10,750 nucleotides of DNA from Candidatus Thorarchaeota archaeon (GTDB taxonomy: Archaea > Asgardarchaeota > Thorarchaeia > Thorarchaeales > Thorarchaeaceae), in contig JAFGAR010000120.1 of NCBI GenBank assembly GCA_016933575.1, positions 1 to 10,750 of the forward strand, in the 5' to 3' direction. This document shows, piece after piece, positions 3,751 to 10,677 of this stretch (position 1 is its first letter; every line of letters starts with the position of its first letter). The position numbers were made by a program, and so were the translations under genes. The notes beneath the pieces are model-generated. The model saw only the letters and a list, made by a program, of their open reading frames with translations. It ran no database searches and was not told the origin of the DNA.

Positions 3751-3891
3751 GTAAATGTTTCCGTTATTGTGTAAATGCAGTAGTGAGCTAATCTCTAATA
3801 AGGATATTCGTAGGACTCCCTTAGGTAATATCCAGAAGAAGCTCACTCTTGAGCGAAATCTCTTAGATAGAATAGCATATGAAACATTTAC
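3751..3891. repeat. Nested inverted repeats in the divergent regulator/pstS intergenic region
   Basis: Three perfect reverse-complement pairs, nested around ~3815-3821: GTAAATGTTTC 3751-3761 / GAAACATTTAC 3881-3891; AGTGAGCT 3782-3789 / AGCTCACT 3840-3847; GGATATT 3802-3808 / AATATCC 3827-3833. Confidence 0.7.
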
Positions 3892-3910
3892 TTCAAGTAC
3901 TGACATACGA

Positions 3911-3916
3911 TTATAA
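3911..3916 (+). promoter_or_regulatory. Candidate archaeal TATA box for the pst operon
   Basis: TTATAA, 47-62 nt upstream of the two likely pstS starts (3963, 3978). It is the best TATA-like hexamer on this strand, but no clear BRE is visible. Confidence 0.4.
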
Positions 3917-3977
3917 TGCGGATTCCTTAACTATTCGACTTTTTCGTCTTGCGTTAACATTCATGGAGAAAAAGAAC

Positions 3978-5021
3978 ATGGATTCAAAGACTTTAATTGT
4001 TGGACTTGTAATCGGTCTTCTGATCGGTGCAGGTGGAATCTTCATTGCCGCTCCGGCACTATTCCCCTCCACAACACCAACCTACACCATCACAAGCTCC
4101 GGTTCAACTACAGTCCTGCCCCTCTCTCAGATGTGGGCTTCAGAAATAGGTGACTTCTACCCCAACTTCGTCTTCAATCCTACCGGAGGCGGTTCAGGTA
4201 AGGGACAAGCAGATGCAGCTTCTGGTCTCGTCGATATCGGTGCTTCAAGCTCATATCCAAAGGAAGACTGGAGAACTGCCAATCCTAATGTAGACATCCT
4301 GCCTATCTCAGCTGATGCGTTAGGTATTGTTGTCAATGATGCAGTGAATGGATCGACCATGTACATGGATGCTGATCAAGCATGTGCCATCTTCGCACGA
4401 AACATCACAACATGGGAAGCCTTCGAGACAACCTTTGGTGTCAGCGTTGAAGCAACTGGTGATATCAATGTGTATGTTCGTTCTGATGCCAGTGGAACTA
4501 CTGCAACCTTCGCCAAGTGGCTAAAGACTGCTGCGGACTACGATCACCCAGATGCAGACTATACCTGGGGATACGGTGACAGCGAGTCGATTGACTGGGC
4601 TGCAGGTATAAACGCAGTAGAAGGTAATCCTGGTGTTGCATCTGGTGTCGAATCCGATGCTAATGCTATCGGATATGTTGGCTTAGCCTTCATGGACGAT
4701 GTCACTGCTGTCTGGCTCTACAATCCGAGCTTGGATGAGTACATCGAGCCTACAGTCGAGAACGCACTAAACGCACTTCCCGATGTTATCACTAATCCTG
4801 GTGTCAATCTATTCAATGCAGACCGACCAAACGCATATCCAATTGCACGTTTGATCTTCTATCTCATTCCTGAGAATCCACAGTGGTACACCATTGCTTT
4901 CTTGTCATGGTGCCTCTCTGCAGGGCAGACCTACATTCTTGATGTCGGTTACGTACCCATTGCTGGATCTTCAGCTGGCTCTTACGCTGTAAGTGTAATT
5001 GCTACTATGGTTCCTGCATAA
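3978..5021 (+). CDS. pstS: Phosphate ABC transporter substrate-binding protein, N-terminally membrane-anchored
   Basis: Motifs SGSTTV, GGGSGKG, DIGASS, RSDASGTT, AIGYVG, YPIAR. N-terminal TM helix LIVGLVIGLLIGAGGIFIAA with no lipobox Cys. Start placed at ATG 3978 because GGAG (3965-3968) lies 9 nt upstream, like other genes here; 3963 is the alternative. Confidence 0.93.
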   Translation: MDSKTLIVGLVIGLLIGAGGIFIAAPALFPSTTPTYTITSSGSTTVLPLSQMWASEIGDFYPNFVFNPTGGGSGKGQADAASGLVDIGASSSYPKEDWRTANPNVDILPISADALGIVVNDAVNGSTMYMDADQACAIFARNITTWEAFETTFGVSVEATGDINVYVRSDASGTTATFAKWLKTAADYDHPDADYTWGYGDSESIDWAAGINAVEGNPGVASGVESDANAIGYVGLAFMDDVTAVWLYNPSLDEYIEPTVENALNALPDVITNPGVNLFNADRPNAYPIARLIFYLIPENPQWYTIAFLSWCLSAGQTYILDVGYVPIAGSSAGSYAVSVIATMVPA

Positions 5022-5040
5022 GGGACTACTACCTCCTTCT

Positions 5041-5064
5041 GGAACGCATCTTCTGATGCGTTCC
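5041..5064 (+). terminator. Stem-loop between pstS and pstC (partial terminator or mRNA-stabilising hairpin)
   Basis: Perfect 10-bp stem GGAACGCATC-ttct-GATGCGTTCC about 20 nt after the pstS stop, followed by the pyrimidine-rich CACTTCTATTT. Confidence 0.65.
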
Positions 5065-5122
5065 CACTTCTATTTACGGATTCGATAGACATTAAAGCGA
5101 CTCAAATTGGTGACGAATTGCA

Positions 5123-6145
5123 TTGACAGATAAGCAAGGTACCTCAACAGAGGAAGCATATGCTGAAGATAGTACCATCGAGGAAATTGGTTTCCTTCAG
5201 AATTTAAAGAATGGTTTCTCTTCATACTTTCACGATCTGCGTACAGCGAAAGGTCCTGCGCGAATGGATATCTTCGGAAGGACCATGCTCATCATTCCCG
5301 CCTTGGCAAGTGTCACAATTATCACTTTGATACTCGCAATGCTATGGGTCGAATCAGCTCCGATCCTCCTGAGTGAGCAAGCGGGGATTGGAATCATCGT
5401 TGATACCGAATGGGGTCCCAACCGAGGTCATTACGGAATCGCGATATTCATTGCAGGAACATTCCTCTGTGCATCAATCGCCATCCTGATTGCGATTCCC
5501 ACTGGCGTTGGAGGAGCTATCTTTCTAAGCGAATTCTGCCCTTTGCGCATCAGGTCTTTCTTTCGAACTATCATCGAACTAATGGCAGCTATTCCTTCTA
5601 TCGTCTATGGCCTCTGGGCATTTACTGTGCTTCGCTTTTGGGTCGCTGACCTAGGCGAATTTTGGTATGGAGGCGATATGAATGGTCTCTCGCTCCTCTC
5701 GGGAGGCATAATTCTATCAATCATGCTTCTTCCAACTGTAGTGACTGTGTCTGACGATGCATTGCAATCTGTACCCAAGACATATCGCGAAGCTTCCTTT
5801 GCTCTAGGAGCAACCAAGAGTGAGACCGCAAGACGAATAGTCCTGTCTGCGGCAATCCCTGGAGTGGGGGCTGCAGTTGTGCTCTCACTAGGTAGAGCAG
5901 TCGGAGAAACAATGGCTATTCTGATGGTCACTGGGAATTCACTGCAGATTCCACTCACGTTATTTGATCCTTGCTATGTGATGACGAGTATTATCACGAA
6001 TCAGCTCGGGACAGCCTATGTCGAGCCCTTATGGCGTTCATCATTGTTCTCGGTGGCATTGATACTGATGCTCATGTCTGTGGCATTCACATTGATAGCT
6101 AAGGTGTTCATCAGCTGGGGCATGAAGACAAGGGGGATGAGCTAG
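5123..6145 (+). CDS. pstC: Phosphate ABC transporter permease PstC
   Basis: Motifs WGP...YG, IELMAAIPSIVYGLW, EAA loop YREASFALGATKSET, LGRAVGETMA. TTG start with GGTGA (5109-5113) 9 nt upstream. Confidence 0.95.
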   Translation: MTDKQGTSTEEAYAEDSTIEEIGFLQNLKNGFSSYFHDLRTAKGPARMDIFGRTMLIIPALASVTIITLILAMLWVESAPILLSEQAGIGIIVDTEWGPNRGHYGIAIFIAGTFLCASIAILIAIPTGVGGAIFLSEFCPLRIRSFFRTIIELMAAIPSIVYGLWAFTVLRFWVADLGEFWYGGDMNGLSLLSGGIILSIMLLPTVVTVSDDALQSVPKTYREASFALGATKSETARRIVLSAAIPGVGAAVVLSLGRAVGETMAILMVTGNSLQIPLTLFDPCYVMTSIITNQLGTAYVEPLWRSSLFSVALILMLMSVAFTLIAKVFISWGMKTRGMS

Positions 6146-6146
6146 A

Positions 6147-7130
6147 ATGGTCGAAGATAAGAAACTCCTCTTGCAAGAATCCGCCTATGAGGGACCCTAC
6201 TCAGAAGAACCGACAGCTCTTCAGTCTCTTAAGAAACAGCTGAAATCTGCGACTAACTCGAAACGTGACTTCTCTGATTTTCTCTTTAAGATTCTCCTTG
6301 GCGTTATCACAATCATCATCATTACTCCTTTCTTTCTGATTTTCTTTCAAGTGGCTGATGTCGCAAGATTCGTCTTCTTTGGAAACGGAGAGGGCGAAGG
6401 CATTGACTTCCTCTTCACTCTTCCGACTGAAGCTGAGGAGCCTTTGAATGGGGGGATTGCGAATTCCATTGTTGGAAGCATCCTTCTGTGTGCCATAGCG
6501 GGAAGCCTTGGTATTCCTCTGAGTGTATTTGGGGCAGTATATATTAGCGAGTACACAAGAGCGGGAAAGTTGAGATCTGCCATCGAGTTCGGTGCTGATG
6601 TTCTTGCGGGGATTCCCTCTATCGTGTTCGGTGCTTTTGGTCTGGCTCTATTCGTTGATGGGCTTCATCTTGGAATGGGTCTGTTCTCAGGGGGCATGAC
6701 TCTTGCCTTTATGATGATTCCAACCATACTACGAACAACACAAGAGGCATTGCGACAAGTCCCAATCTCTTTGCGTGAAGCGTCCCTCGCTTTGGGTGCC
6801 ACAAAATGGACAACAACATGGAGAATTACAATTAGAGCTGCGTTTCCAGGAATCATCACAGGAGTCCTTCTTGCAATTGGGCGAATTATAGGTGAAACCG
6901 CACCGCTCTTGTTCACATCAGGGAACTCTCTTGGATTTCCTGGAGCAATAATTGGATCTGCATCATGGGTCGCATCACTGCCATACACCATCTACCTGTA
7001 TGTTAGTGACCCCCGCGATTACCTTAATCAGAAGGCCTCAGCAGCAGCACTCACATTGCTCCTTATTGTTTTAGTCATCGATTTGATAGCGAATTACATT
7101 TCAAGAAAAGTAACCAGAAGGGTGGTCTAA
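6147..7130 (+). CDS. pstA: Phosphate ABC transporter permease PstA
   Basis: Motifs GGIANSIVGS, LAGIPSIVFGAFG, LREASLALGATKWTT, IGRIIGETAPLL. Starts 1 nt after the pstC stop. Confidence 0.95.
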   Translation: MVEDKKLLLQESAYEGPYSEEPTALQSLKKQLKSATNSKRDFSDFLFKILLGVITIIIITPFFLIFFQVADVARFVFFGNGEGEGIDFLFTLPTEAEEPLNGGIANSIVGSILLCAIAGSLGIPLSVFGAVYISEYTRAGKLRSAIEFGADVLAGIPSIVFGAFGLALFVDGLHLGMGLFSGGMTLAFMMIPTILRTTQEALRQVPISLREASLALGATKWTTTWRITIRAAFPGIITGVLLAIGRIIGETAPLLFTSGNSLGFPGAIIGSASWVASLPYTIYLYVSDPRDYLNQKASAAALTLLLIVLVIDLIANYISRKVTRRVV

Positions 7131-7132
7131 GA

Positions 7133-7939
7133 ATGACATCAATTTTTCCTGAGGACAAACCTGGAATAACCAAAGAAAAACCTCACAATGCAAAGATAAT
7201 CATCGAAGACTTATCGACGTGGTTTGGGCGAAAGAAGATACTCAAGAATATCTCATGCTACTTTGAGGACCGAAATGTCACTGCAATCATGGGACCATCA
7301 GGATGTGGAAAGTCAACGCTACTCAGGACCATGAATAGGCTGAATGACCTAATTGGCAACTTCAAGGCCACCGGGAAGATATTCATTGAGGGCGATGACA
7401 TTCTTCGTCCTGAGGCTAATGTCTATTCCCTGAGAGCGAAGGTGGGCATGGTCTTCCAACGTCCTAACCCCTTCCCAATGAGTATCAAGGACAACATCAC
7501 ATATGGTCCCTCATTGCAGGGCATAAATGACGAAGATGAACAAGAGAGGATTGTAGAAACTTGTTTGAAGAAAGCAGCCCTTTGGGATGAAGTCAAAGAT
7601 AATCTCGATCATCCCGCCCCAAATTTATCAGGTGGACAGCAACAACGCCTTTGCATTGCAAGAGCTTTGTCTGTAAATCCACCGATCCTATTGATGGATG
7701 AGCCTGTGTCTGCACTTGACCCACTCAGTGCATCTAAGATCGAAGATCTTATCATAGAGTTGAAGAAGGAATATGCAATTATCATGGTCACACATAATGT
7801 TCAGCAAGCTTTCCGTGTATCAGATCAGGCTGCATTCCTATACTTGGGGGAGCTTGTAGAATTTGACAAGACCAAACGCATCGCTGAAGCCCCGGCTGAT
7901 GATAGGACTGAGGCATTCATTACTGGTCGCATTGGTTAG
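7133..7939 (+). CDS. pstB: Phosphate ABC transporter ATP-binding protein PstB
   Basis: Walker A GPSGCGKS, GMVFQRPNPFPMSI, signature LSGGQQQRLCIARAL, Walker B LLMDEP, VTHN, and C-terminal FITGRIG. Confidence 0.97.
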   Translation: MTSIFPEDKPGITKEKPHNAKIIIEDLSTWFGRKKILKNISCYFEDRNVTAIMGPSGCGKSTLLRTMNRLNDLIGNFKATGKIFIEGDDILRPEANVYSLRAKVGMVFQRPNPFPMSIKDNITYGPSLQGINDEDEQERIVETCLKKAALWDEVKDNLDHPAPNLSGGQQQRLCIARALSVNPPILLMDEPVSALDPLSASKIEDLIIELKKEYAIIMVTHNVQQAFRVSDQAAFLYLGELVEFDKTKRIAEAPADDRTEAFITGRIG

Positions 7940-7950
7940 GAGAGATGAAG

Positions 7951-8643
7951 ATGAAGACACAACTTGAATTCTATATGGAAGAAATAGAAAAGAGGATACG
8001 ACGGATACACGAGCTAGTGAATCATGGTCTCTCAATGGCTATGGACGCTTTCGCATCTCTTGATGGGAAAGAGGTTGTAATGGTAAAACAGAATAGCCAC
8101 GAAATCGAGGACCTGTCTGAAAAGGTGGAGGATAATGTTTTCGAAACAATCGCGCGACGACAACCTGTTGCTCGTGACCTGAGAAAGCTTGCCGCTTATC
8201 TCCAGATATCACATCATCTCTATCGAATAGGTCGATATGCATGCAAGATTGCTCACATCGTTGATCTCTGTCTGGCAGAGAATCTTATTCATTACAAAGA
8301 GCTACAGTCACTCCCGCATCTTAAACAACTGGCCCAAGAAACCATCAATATTGCCATGGAAGCTGTGCTTGATGGGAACTTAGAACGGATTCCTGATTTA
8401 GAGAATTTGGAGTCTGAGAGCGATAGGGAAACAGAGGAGATGTTCCAAGAGATAAGTGAGTTCCTTCGCAAACAGGATGGCATAGAGAAGATGTCGATGT
8501 TCTATGTGATTGTTGGTCGATACTTTGAGCGTGCAGCAGATCATGGACTCCAGATAGCTGAACGGGGGATCTATATTCATACAGGCAAGAAGAAGCAGCT
8601 GGGTATCGCCTTCAAAGATAAGGGAATGCTAGGACCCCACTAG
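7951..8643 (+). CDS. phoU: Phosphate signalling/uptake regulator PhoU
   Basis: Motifs IARRQPVARDLR and RYFERAADH; helical and acidic; directly after pstB. AGGAG (7938-7942) favours ATG 7951, with 7945 as the alternative. Confidence 0.92.
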   Translation: MKTQLEFYMEEIEKRIRRIHELVNHGLSMAMDAFASLDGKEVVMVKQNSHEIEDLSEKVEDNVFETIARRQPVARDLRKLAAYLQISHHLYRIGRYACKIAHIVDLCLAENLIHYKELQSLPHLKQLAQETINIAMEAVLDGNLERIPDLENLESESDRETEEMFQEISEFLRKQDGIEKMSMFYVIVGRYFERAADHGLQIAERGIYIHTGKKKQLGIAFKDKGMLGPH

Positions 8644-8655
8644 ACTCGTAGGACT

Positions 8656-9180
8656 TCATTTCGTCGTGATTCTATCATGGATCGATCTAACGAGCTCAAG
8701 GAATGCCATCTCAACATGGATATTCTCAGTAGCACTTGTTTGGATGTATTTGAGAACGCGCTTTGCAATCTCAGCGTGGATGTGATCTGACATGATAGCA
8801 GGCTGTAGGTCAATCTTGTTCTCGCACACGACAACAGGCACATTTCCTGCAGCATTTCTAAGTGCGACTAGCCATTGATCGAGCTTCTCGAAGGTTTCCG
8901 GTCTTGTCCTATCAAAGACGAAGAATGCGCCACTTGCATTTGCGCAGTATTGCTCTCTTAACTCCGAAAACGACTCCTGCCCACCTAGATCCCAGATGAC
9001 CAGTTTGTGCAAACTATCTCGAAACTCGACCTTCTTGACGTGCAAGACCGCACCAATTGTCCTACTCATATCTGTTGATAGGCTGTCATAGACAAAACGC
9101 TCGACCAGTGAGGTCTTCCCTACACCTGACTCACCCAAAAAGACGAGCTTGTGGACAAAGTCCGGTTCACGATTCACCAT
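8656..9180 (-). CDS. Rab-like small GTPase (Ras superfamily), paralog A, divergent
   Basis: G1 GESGVGKT, G2 T (RTIG), G3 WDLGGQ, G4 NKID, G5 TSAT. AGGAG lies 10 nt upstream of the ATG. No C-terminal Cys. Confidence 0.93.
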   Translation of the reverse strand: MVNREPDFVHKLVFLGESGVGKTSLVERFVYDSLSTDMSRTIGAVLHVKKVEFRDSLHKLVIWDLGGQESFSELREQYCANASGAFFVFDRTRPETFEKLDQWLVALRNAAGNVPVVVCENKIDLQPAIMSDHIHAEIAKRVLKYIQTSATENIHVEMAFLELVRSIHDRITTK

Positions 9181-9203
9181 GACATCATATCTCCTAGGGC
9201 GTC

Positions 9204-9743
9204 TTATGGTTCTACGATACGTTTCCTCAATCTTGACTTCTCAAGAATCTCACGAGTCATTTCTAAGAAAGCTTCTTCAACATTTGTGTCTTCCTTTGCG
9301 CTGGTCTGGATTAGCTTCATATCGAATTTTTTCGCAATCTTCTCCAATTCTGCTCGTTCTATCCTAGATTCAAGGTCGACCTTATTCTCAAGAAGCACAA
9401 TTGGTATCTTTCCTGTCACGGCATTAAGGGCCTCAATCCACTCATCGATACGTTGGAGGGTCGCGGGACGAGTAGTATCGAATACGAAAAAGGCTCCCGA
9501 TGCGTTCTGATAGTATGCCTTCCTCAACTGGGCGAAGTCGTCTTGACCTGCGATATCCCAGATGACAAGTTTGCATAGTGTGTCATCTACTTTGACAGGC
9601 TTAGTATGCATCGCGGCACCGATAGTTGCGAGATAGTCTCCTTCAAAGGAATCGTAAACATAGCGACCTACAAGCGAGGTTTTCCCAACTCCGCCCTCTC
9701 CTAGAAAAACCAATTTCCATAGATAGGCGACGTGTTCTGTCAA
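9204..9743 (-). CDS. Rab-like small GTPase (Ras superfamily), paralog B, canonical
   Basis: G1 GEGGVGKT, switch I F..DY.ATIG, G3 KLVIWDIAGQ, YYQNA, FVFDTT, G4 NKVD, G5 TSAK. TTG start with GGAG 10 nt upstream. Basic C-terminus KSRLRKR, no Cys. Confidence 0.94.
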   Translation of the reverse strand: MTEHVAYLWKLVFLGEGGVGKTSLVGRYVYDSFEGDYLATIGAAMHTKPVKVDDTLCKLVIWDIAGQDDFAQLRKAYYQNASGAFFVFDTTRPATLQRIDEWIEALNAVTGKIPIVLLENKVDLESRIERAELEKIAKKFDMKLIQTSAKEDTNVEEAFLEMTREILEKSRLRKRIVEP

Positions 9744-9885
9744 GGGATGGATACTCCAAAAGATGCTGGCGATAATGTGTTTGACGCTTCTGATAAAATT
9801 ATCGAAGACCTCCTGAAAAGATTATCGGGAACCAAAAGTGACAAAAGACGAACATTCCATTCTAGCAACATGATGGTGGTGACCA

Positions 9886-10677
9886 ATGCAAATAGGAACG
9901 TTCGCGAGGGATAACAAGCAGATTGAAGATGCACTTACGTACGAGCCCGATTTCATAGATCTAAGAATGGATCTTAATCATAGCATCATCTTCACAGAGG
10001 CAAAAAGAATGCTGCGGGAATCAGGAGTCGCATGCACTCTCCACCTACCAAGTAGTCCAGACTGGAATCCGTTGGATATTGCGAAAGATATCATGCCCTA
10101 TGTAGACCTTGGTAGAGAGGTGGATGCAGAGCTCGTGTATTTCCATACGACCCTCTCAACCCTTTTCTATAGCGATCAAGATATCGAGGTGTTCCTCTCA
10201 GCCCTTCCAGCTGTATGTGATGTTGTGAAGGACTCAGGCATCAACATGGCAATAGAAACCTTGGGACTCTATTATACCGAGCTTATGCTCCTCTTTGATG
10301 CCCATCCCAAGATGTCAATGGCCCTCGATCTAGGACATGGACAGATCATGGCAAAGCGAAATAGAGCATTGGGTCATATTGAGAGCTTCCATGAGAAGAT
10401 CAGAATGGTGATAGTCCATGATAATCATGGTGCAGACATGGTAGATGAGGTCATTCGCATCAAGAAGGATAGAATGCTATCCATTGAAGAGATGCGAGAG
10501 ATTGCACATAGATACGACGAGCACCTTCCCATTGGAGAAGGACATATCGATTTCATCCCATTATTCAGAGAACTGAAGGAACATCACTACGATGGGAAGT
10601 TCCTCCTGATGAGTGCAGATCAGACTCGATTTGAGAGCGAACGGGAAAAGTTCACGGACCTCTGGTTGCAGGCATGA
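9886..10677 (+). CDS. Xylose-isomerase-like TIM-barrel protein (sugar phosphate isomerase/epimerase / AP endonuclease family 2 fold)
   Basis: Motifs TLHLP, VYFH, AIET, LDLGHG, VHDNHG, DEHLPIGEGHIDF, YDG. GGTGGTGA ribosome-binding site just upstream of the ATG. Confidence 0.85.
   Translation: MQIGTFARDNKQIEDALTYEPDFIDLRMDLNHSIIFTEAKRMLRESGVACTLHLPSSPDWNPLDIAKDIMPYVDLGREVDAELVYFHTTLSTLFYSDQDIEVFLSALPAVCDVVKDSGINMAIETLGLYYTELMLLFDAHPKMSMALDLGHGQIMAKRNRALGHIESFHEKIRMVIVHDNHGADMVDEVIRIKKDRMLSIEEMREIAHRYDEHLPIGEGHIDFIPLFRELKEHHYDGKFLLMSADQTRFESEREKFTDLWLQA

Follow-up and report, generated by a model that had tools for sequence, protein, structure and literature searches.

An ancient operon of two Rab-like GTPase paralogs in Thorarchaeota, one of which lacks conserved residues of the nucleotide pocket

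Asgard archaea encode dozens of eukaryote-like small GTPases whose regulation is barely known. Few recognisable exchange factors or activators are encoded, and the order of genes seldom offers clues (PMC10933270); GTPase genes of the Asgard strain MK-D1 generally do not share operons with regulators (PMC10933270). Rab-like GTPases are known from archaea (Surkont and Pereira-Leal 2016, PMC4915359), and a structure (7EZB) exists for Thor-Rab, a Rab from Thorarchaeota (Tran et al. 2024, PMC10933270). Neither PMC4915359 nor PMC10933270 describes an operon like the one reported here, or a subfamily without Phe28, Tyr32 and Lys147 (Ras numbering). Here we analyse two adjacent genes, which we call B and A, in a stretch of 10,750 nucleotides (the window) from contig JAFGAR010000120.1 of a Candidatus Thorarchaeota genome (assembly GCA_016933575.1). 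B encodes a canonical Rab-like small GTPase and A encodes a derived Rab-like paralog, and together they very probably form a specialised, conserved paralog operon.

Both genes lie on the minus strand. B (179 residues, TTG start) occupies positions 9204-9743 and A (174 residues, ATG start) positions 8656-9180, with a spacer of 23 nucleotides between them (9181-9203, minus strand), and GGAG is found 10 nucleotides ahead of each start, at 9757-9754 for B and at 9194-9191 for A. The short spacer and the GGAG before the ATG of A fit co-transcription of the two genes with separate translation starts. A preliminary description of the locus had taken the two genes to be paralogs, and this is supported both by a gapless alignment with 85 identities in 163 positions (52%; BLASTP, E 2e-62) and by the joint clade that A and B form in the tree described below. 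The hand count given there, 85 identities without gaps, was right; the aligned length is 163, not 158.

We assigned residue equivalences to Ras by counting from the P-loop Lys. All five G motifs (GxxxxGK[ST], Thr, DxxG, NKxD and SAx) are present in both proteins. In B, we read GEGGVGKT, then F33, Y37 and T40 at the positions of Ras Phe28, Tyr32 and Thr35, followed by DIAGQ (catalytic Gln Q67), NKVD and S-A-K150. In A, we read GESGVGKT, then L34, M38 and T41 at the same three positions, followed by DLGGQ (Q68), NKID and S-A-T151, such that the third residue of the G5 motif, the position of Ras Lys147, is Thr and not Lys. The codons confirm these states on the minus strand: CTA for L34 (9079-9081), ATG for M38 (9069-9067) and ACT for T151 (8728-8730) in A, and TTT for F33 (9647-9645) and AAG for K150 (9296-9294) in B. 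The two proteins also differ in switch I (LSTDMSRT in A versus FEGDYLAT in B) and in switch II (DLGGQES versus DIAGQDD). Thus, direct reading agrees with the preliminary description in the substitutions (L34/F33, M38/Y37 and T151/K150), in the intact Thr35, Gln61 and NKxD of A, and in the switch strings.

Both proteins are Rab-like members of the Ras superfamily. The Pfam Ras model (PF00071, cut-off 21.6 bits) scores 126.5 bits with A and 158.5 bits with B, covering profile positions 1-161 of 162, while both score far lower with the Arf model (60.9 bits for A, 50.1 for B) and with the Gtr1/RagA model (44.6 and 37.6 bits). Each protein consists of a single G domain without any additional Pfam domain, and hence has no C-terminal roadblock domain; because of this absence, neither is a Rag. 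By sequence, the closest relatives with solved structures are Rab11 and Rab22 for A and Rab23, Rab7 and Rab18 for B, and the nearest database proteins are annotated as 'Rab family GTPase' or GTP-binding protein of Candidatus Thorarchaeota. In the AF2 model, A folds as a standard G domain (predicted local distance difference test score, pLDDT, 88.2), and switch I is the one part of low confidence; a Foldseek search with this model gave Rab1b, Rab4a and Rab8a as top matches (template modelling, TM, scores 0.85-0.88). In the same model, the N-terminus of A comprises 10 residues before strand 1, and the N-terminal amphipathic helix of Arf is lacking; neither protein is an Arf. Both also depart from the strict definition of a Rab at the C-terminus, as no prenylatable Cys (CC, CXC or CAAX) was found there in A (...DRITTK) or B (...RKRIVEP); among the orthologs described below, a Cys within the last five residues is seen in 1 of 120 A-type and 3 of 120 B-type proteins. 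The RabF1 to RabF5 strings that Pereira-Leal and Seabra reportedly gave in 2000 are IGVDF, KLQIW, RFrsiT, YYRGA and LVYDIT. Compared with these strings, RabF2 is almost complete and the others are partial in both B (IGAAM, KLVIW, DFAQLR, YYQNA, FVFDTT) and A (IGAVL, KLVIW, SFSELR, YCANA, FVFDRT).

In their overall organisation, A and B resemble the described archaeal Rab-like GTPases: a single G domain of ~175 residues, all of the G motifs and Rabs as the nearest eukaryotic relatives. As is usual in archaeal Rab-like proteins (PMC4915359), neither has a C-terminal prenylation Cys. The paralog Thor-Rab (7EZB) is more distant and matches B with 110 bits and A with 90 bits. B differs in its C-terminus (9204-9245, minus strand), a polybasic tail (...SRLRKR...) without a C-terminal Cys; none was found in the archaeal Rab-like set of Surkont and Pereira-Leal (PMC4915359). 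The net charge of the last 12 residues has a median of +3 in B-type proteins versus about +1 in A-type proteins. Two paralogous GTPases encoded together are also known from Rag/Gtr, including a Rag-like operon pair in strain MK-D1 (PMC10933270). As with Rag/Gtr, an asymmetric pairing is presumed for A and B, which differ in having no C-terminal roadblock, the Rag dimerisation module.

The B-A arrangement is widely conserved. In an ortholog search with one genome per species, we found 23 loci with an A ortholog (60-87% identity), each in a different Thorarchaeota genome, and a B ortholog (65-87%) stands directly upstream on the same strand in all 22 of the A loci for which upstream DNA is available. 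The spacer in most of the 22 loci ranges from an overlap of a few bases to ~60 nucleotides. Within the order, 52 of 61 sampled genomes gave matches, and most of these have exactly two adjacent matches, B followed by A. An intact A frame is present in 16 of the 17 genera sampled. In a sample of the phylum (151 genomes), matches were confined to two families: 22 of 26 genomes in one family, with both genes in 19, and the single genome sampled from a second family, which has one B-like gene with the Phe, the Tyr and SAK, and no A. None of the 123 genomes from 25 other Asgard families matched the pair. A few genomes appeared to have A alone; these cases are artefacts of contig ends or of frameshifts, the frameshift lying in B. 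From these results, B-A is an ancient two-gene operon that has been inherited vertically within one Thorarchaeota family. The preliminary description had read the pair as a local tandem duplication. A recent duplication of this kind is ruled out by the conservation of the operon across genera and by the tree, and we re-date the duplication to the base of this family. Two loci show peculiarities of their own: in one genome (G003, L088:714-1242) the B ortholog is split into two frames near residue 28, by a frameshift or an assembly error, and in another (G005, L081:5530-6006) a third Ras-like gene, with ~38% identity to B, sits between B and A.

To place the duplication, we relied on a quick IQ-TREE run on 161 proteins, comprising A types, B types, other paralogs of this genome and Rab-like proteins of other Asgard archaea, with support values from the SH-like approximate likelihood ratio test (SH-aLRT) only. 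A and B together form one clade (support 98). A forms a clade of its own (support 100), whose long stem measures 0.81 substitutions per site, and the A and B sub-trees have the same internal groupings. We estimated the ratio of non-synonymous to synonymous substitution rates (dN/dS) by the Nei-Gojobori method and quote it for the three locus pairs in which synonymous sites were not saturated; it is 0.009-0.049 for A and 0.011-0.075 for B. Over all pairs, the median ratio of dN in A to dN in B is 1.3, and 24 columns are invariant over 120 A-type sequences. Thus, the duplication was followed by a burst of change in A, and then by tight constraint that has lasted to the present.

This pattern bears directly on the idea that A is merely a decaying duplicate, with relaxed selection and substitutions that are specific to strains. 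A does evolve ~1.3 times faster than B at non-synonymous sites, and it has been lost in one genus. However, a burst of change followed by strong constraint argues for the rejection of decay, which is already contradicted by the low dN/dS of A, the intact frame in 16 of 17 genera, pocket states that are conserved across the clade and the 24 invariant columns; we consider it extremely improbable. The preliminary description had favoured specialisation over decay, and the separate clade, the dN/dS values and the conservation of the pocket changes across genera uphold that choice. The two residues that it had singled out fared differently: A is under purifying selection and Lys is never present at the position of T151, but L34 is not fixed and the residue in G5 varies.

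The nucleotide pocket distinguishes the two families sharply. We aligned 120 A-type and 120 B-type orthologs (the latter with 65-88% identity). At the position of Phe28, the A-type proteins have Leu in 92 cases, Phe in 21, Met in 5 and Ile in 2. At the position of Tyr32, Tyr does not occur in any of the 120; the residue is mainly Ile, Met, Val or Leu, with Phe in 7. Similarly, Lys is never found at the position of Lys147 in G5, which is occupied by Thr, Val, Leu, Ile, Met or Ser. The P-loop, Thr35, DxxG, NKxD and the Ser-Ala of G5 are retained in all 120 A-type proteins, and the position of Gln61 is Gln in 108, Glu in 7, Gly in 4 and His in 1. By comparison, the 120 B-type proteins show no variation, or almost none, in switch I (SFEGDYLATIG) and SAK, while switch I of the A types is variable, such that the difference in the switch regions claimed for this one pair turns out to be systematic. 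The G5 Lys is also present in 24 of 24 B-type proteins. The fetched loci further provided 103 Asgard Rab-like proteins of other types: all 103 have Phe28, all 103 have either Tyr or Phe at position 32, and 102 have the G5 Lys. Additional fixed differences between A and B types are Ser versus Gly at Ras position 12, DLGGQ versus DIAGQ in G3 and, in the switch II helix, Cys79 versus Tyr78.

We also read by eye the single-domain Rab-like paralogs of this genome, a metagenome-assembled genome of 3.47 Mb (85.5% complete, 6.9% contamination) with 26 Ras-family matches. Phe28 is kept in all of these paralogs except two A-type genes, whereas the third residue of G5 is Lys, Leu or Arg, with Ser-Ala-Leu in three canonical paralogs. 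Therefore, it is the loss of Phe28 that stands out, more than a missing G5 Lys by itself. Both substitutions emphasised in the preliminary description thus hold with a qualification: Leu at the Phe28 position is the majority state (92 of 120) but is not universal, as 21 of 120 keep Phe, and the absence of Lys from G5 is complete in the A-type proteins but is not in itself unusual, given the three Ser-Ala-Leu paralogs in the same genome. The invariant marks of the A-type clade are the loss of the G5 Lys and the loss of Tyr32; Leu28 is a majority state only. The A-type proteins that keep Phe28 fall into at least three groups, with the strings SFSPEIG, SFNPNT and SFSE[EA]LG.

We favour a reading in which B is a canonical switch and A has a remodelled, faster-exchanging pocket, with roles divided between the two in one operon, and we give this reading as a whole a probability of roughly 0.5. 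B, with the ancestral nucleotide pocket and an invariant switch I, would be a conventional switch that exchange factors and GTPase activators regulate, possibly kept at the membrane by its polybasic tail. A was derived from a B-like ancestor in the burst of change, followed by strong purifying selection, and its guanine-base clamp is remodelled by the absence of the G5 Lys and of Tyr32 and, usually, by Leu in place of Phe28. The weakened clamp would lower the affinity for nucleotide and allow quicker spontaneous exchange, such that A would load GTP without an exchange factor, and the two proteins would share a pathway in which A is accessory to B.

In Ras, Phe28 stacks on the guanine base. Replacement of this base-stacking aromatic residue, by Leu34 in A, is a feature that A shares with known fast cyclers, both the F28L forms of Ras, Cdc42 and Rac1 and the natural proteins RHOU and RHOV. 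The F28L form of RAC1 releases nucleotide ~20 times faster than wild type (bioRxiv 10.1101/2025.03.04.637030), and in RHOU and RHOV Tyr replaces Phe at position 28 (PMC9029563). Unlike the F28L laboratory mutants, A carries a change that is natural, conserved across a clade and joined with loss of Tyr32 and of the G5 Lys. Natural fast cycling of A is an attractive and directly testable hypothesis, which we regard as plausible; that A is truly fast-exchanging seems to us close to an even bet, if anything a shade below it.

Several points weigh against this reading. A literature search for nucleotide kinetics of any member of the A/B family found none. Phe28 is kept in 21 of 120 A-type proteins (17.5%), so Leu is not required for the function of the family, and Leu still packs hydrophobically against the base. 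The AF2 model of A is nucleotide-free, with low confidence in switch I, and cannot decide the exchange question. We infer co-transcription of B and A from spacing only. In addition, Arf and G-alpha proteins combine DxGGQ in G3 with Cys-Ala-Thr in G5 and have no aromatic residue at the position of Phe28, but their nucleotide binding is tight; in Rac and Cdc42, G5 reads Ser-Ala-Leu. The tight binding by Arf and G-alpha indicates that co-evolved pockets can compensate. A resembles these proteins in DLGGQ, in Ser-Ala-Thr and in the missing aromatic residue. Unlike Arf, however, A is nested in the Rab-like clade, scores 126 bits with the Ras model versus 61 with the Arf model and has no N-terminal amphipathic helix; its likeness to the Arf and G-alpha motifs is convergent.

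If such compensation has occurred in A, then A would be an ordinary tight-binding GTPase that depends on exchange factors and activators, and the pair would represent two switches with different effectors in one pathway. This fits the retention of the P-loop, Thr35, DxxG, NKxD and Ser-Ala in 120 of 120 A-type proteins and of the catalytic Gln in 108 of 120, the persistence of Phe28 in 21 of them and the Ser-Ala-Leu of three canonical paralogs in the same genome. It also fits the higher scores of A than of B with the Arf (60.9 versus 50.1) and Gtr1/RagA (44.6 versus 37.6) models, as expected from a shift toward families that do without Phe28 and Lys147. However, Phe28 and Lys147 hardly vary, either in the 103 other Asgard Rab-like proteins or across the B-type proteins, and their joint loss with Tyr32 points to a changed interaction with the nucleotide; moreover, F28L alone speeds release from RAC1 ~20-fold (bioRxiv 10.1101/2025.03.04.637030). 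We view an ordinary, compensated A as a realistic, if somewhat unlikely, alternative.

The co-occurrence of the two genes is one-way. A was never found without B in the loci and genomes sampled, since the apparent A-only matches are explained by artefacts, whereas B occurs without A in genus g9. One genome of this genus (G029, locus L085) has kept B (67% identity) with its TIM-barrel and zinc-ribbon neighbours (see below) and has no A; in another (G030, L086:7369-7600), A persists as a pseudogene, which has a stop within the P-loop and has lost an internal segment, while the adjoining B is intact. The retention of B without A in g9 implies that B can function by itself, and A seems to be its accessory. 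Thus, the dependence of A on B, in the sense of one-way co-occurrence, is shown.

One explanation of this dependence is that A is a regulatory partner or pseudo-switch of B, either as a subunit of a hetero-complex or as a modulator of the nucleotide state of B, with GTP hydrolysis by A of minor importance. A precedent is the atypical GTPase Arl13B, which is the exchange factor for Arl3. Besides the one-way co-occurrence, this explanation draws on the absence of the catalytic Gln from 12 of 120 A-type proteins (Glu in 7, Gly in 4, His in 1), on the contrast between the variable switch I of A and the invariant switch I of B, and on the similar branching of the A and B sub-trees. However, linkage by itself would produce concordant trees, both proteins lack a dimerisation domain of the Rag roadblock kind, and the Gln in 108 of 120 A-type proteins, along with the P-loop, Thr35 and NKxD in all, suggests a working nucleotide cycle. 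We judge such a role for A unlikely, and direct binding of A and B to each other doubtful. Predictions of an A-B complex with two GTP and two Mg scored 0.00 and 0.01, compared to a mark of 0.32, and were counted neither way.

The pair lies between two plus-strand genes. A gene for a xylose-isomerase-like TIM-barrel protein (9886-10677; PF01261, 61.4 bits) is divergent from B, and the PhoU gene (7945-8643; PF01895), which is the last gene of pstSCAB-phoU (3879-8643), is convergent on A. The TIM-barrel gene is present in 23 of 23 loci and is still beside B in the two g9 loci that have no intact A (L085 and L086), while the genes found downstream of A include PhoU in 22 loci and PstB in 18. The order of the block is ATP-grasp, zinc ribbon, TIM-barrel, B-A, PhoU-PstB-PstA-PstC-PstS, a regulator with AbrB and PhoU parts and a DNA methyltransferase, and this neighbourhood is kept across genera, down to ~51% identity for A. 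The zinc-ribbon gene, past the right end of the window (L001:1560-2507), encodes a protein of 315 residues in which two zinc ribbons, the first at the N-terminus, flank an acidic linker of low complexity and precede a helical C-terminus. Synteny of this gene holds in 22 loci, and it stays with B and the TIM-barrel gene where A has been lost, and its product is a candidate partner of B.

This neighbourhood raises the idea that the pair belongs to a phosphate-uptake island and signals phosphate or nutrient status, which is compatible with any of the molecular readings. The block from the TIM-barrel gene through B-A, PhoU-PstBACS and AbrB-PhoU to the methyltransferase is kept across genera, and in genus g9 the loss of A coincides with a pst operon that is no longer adjacent (in G029 it is elsewhere, on contig C3 at about 889-890 kb). 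Because A adjoins pst, however, a single deletion or rearrangement could explain the joint absence, and where A has been lost, B stays with the TIM-barrel and zinc-ribbon genes and not with pst. The GTPase genes converge on pst-phoU and so are not co-transcribed with it; a candidate Pho-box core that precedes pstS and the regulator is missing upstream of B, and two genomes (G017 and G019) have pst without an ortholog of A or B. A search of the window for the Pho-box-like AACATTTRC with at most one mismatch gave 5 matches, compared to 4.3 expected by chance, and none in the B/TIM-barrel intergenic region (9744-9885). The link of the pair to phosphate uptake is thus possible but weak, and we rate membership of such an island as decidedly unlikely. 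A stronger version combines this idea with fast exchange: A would be self-loading, its GTP-bound fraction would track the guanine-nucleotide or energy state or the phosphate state, and it would gate B, such that the two GTPases would form a nutrient-sensing module beside the phosphate-uptake island. This we hold to be very unlikely; if true, Rab-like parts would here have been assembled into a functional counterpart of the eukaryotic Rag pair.

The intergenic region between B and the TIM-barrel gene contains two elements, both given here on the minus strand. An AT-rich, partly palindromic element, CGATAATTTTATCAGA (9789-9804), is located ~54 nucleotides upstream of the B start and is conserved as CGATA[AG]T[TG]TTAT[CT]AGA in an alignment of 17 orthologous intergenic regions; it is a candidate TATA-type promoter element of the B-A operon. 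A direct repeat, CTTTTGTCACTTTTGGT (9831-9847), in which CTTTTG recurs directly at ~10-nucleotide spacing, is kept across genera. Judged from position and conservation, the two elements may be promoter or regulator sites of the divergent genes. A scan of positions 8500-10000 for sigma-70 promoters and intrinsic terminators gave nothing above chance, with models that are bacterial and ill-suited to archaea, and almost none of the sequence words of positions 8600-9900 are present in two metatranscriptomes of the same study.

A block of ~10 kb, from the TIM-barrel gene to the methyltransferase, is present twice in this genome, with one copy in the window and the other at C166:30385-40024 (47-74% protein identity); two B-A pairs are seen in no other genome of the 61. 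The window copy is nearest to another genus (g14; 75-80% for A), while the copy on contig C166 matches the genus of the genome itself (60-65%). The contig of the window (C100) has a GC content of 0.451 versus 0.423 for the genome, and its tetranucleotide distance is in the top 10% of chunks, which is not decisive. Given the 6.9% contamination of the genome, the contig may be mis-binned; alternatively, the block may have been transferred.

For Asgard archaea, the B-A pair is a rare case in which gene order helps: it sets a canonical switch beside a paralog in which the clamp was remodelled and then held fixed by selection. If A does not self-exchange, it would provide a natural Rab-like pocket that dispenses with Phe28 and Lys147, which would be useful for defining the determinants of nucleotide binding. 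If A does self-exchange, it would represent one way for a prokaryotic cell to run a Ras-like switch without an exchange factor, and would show how paralog pairs began dividing regulatory work before eukaryotes.

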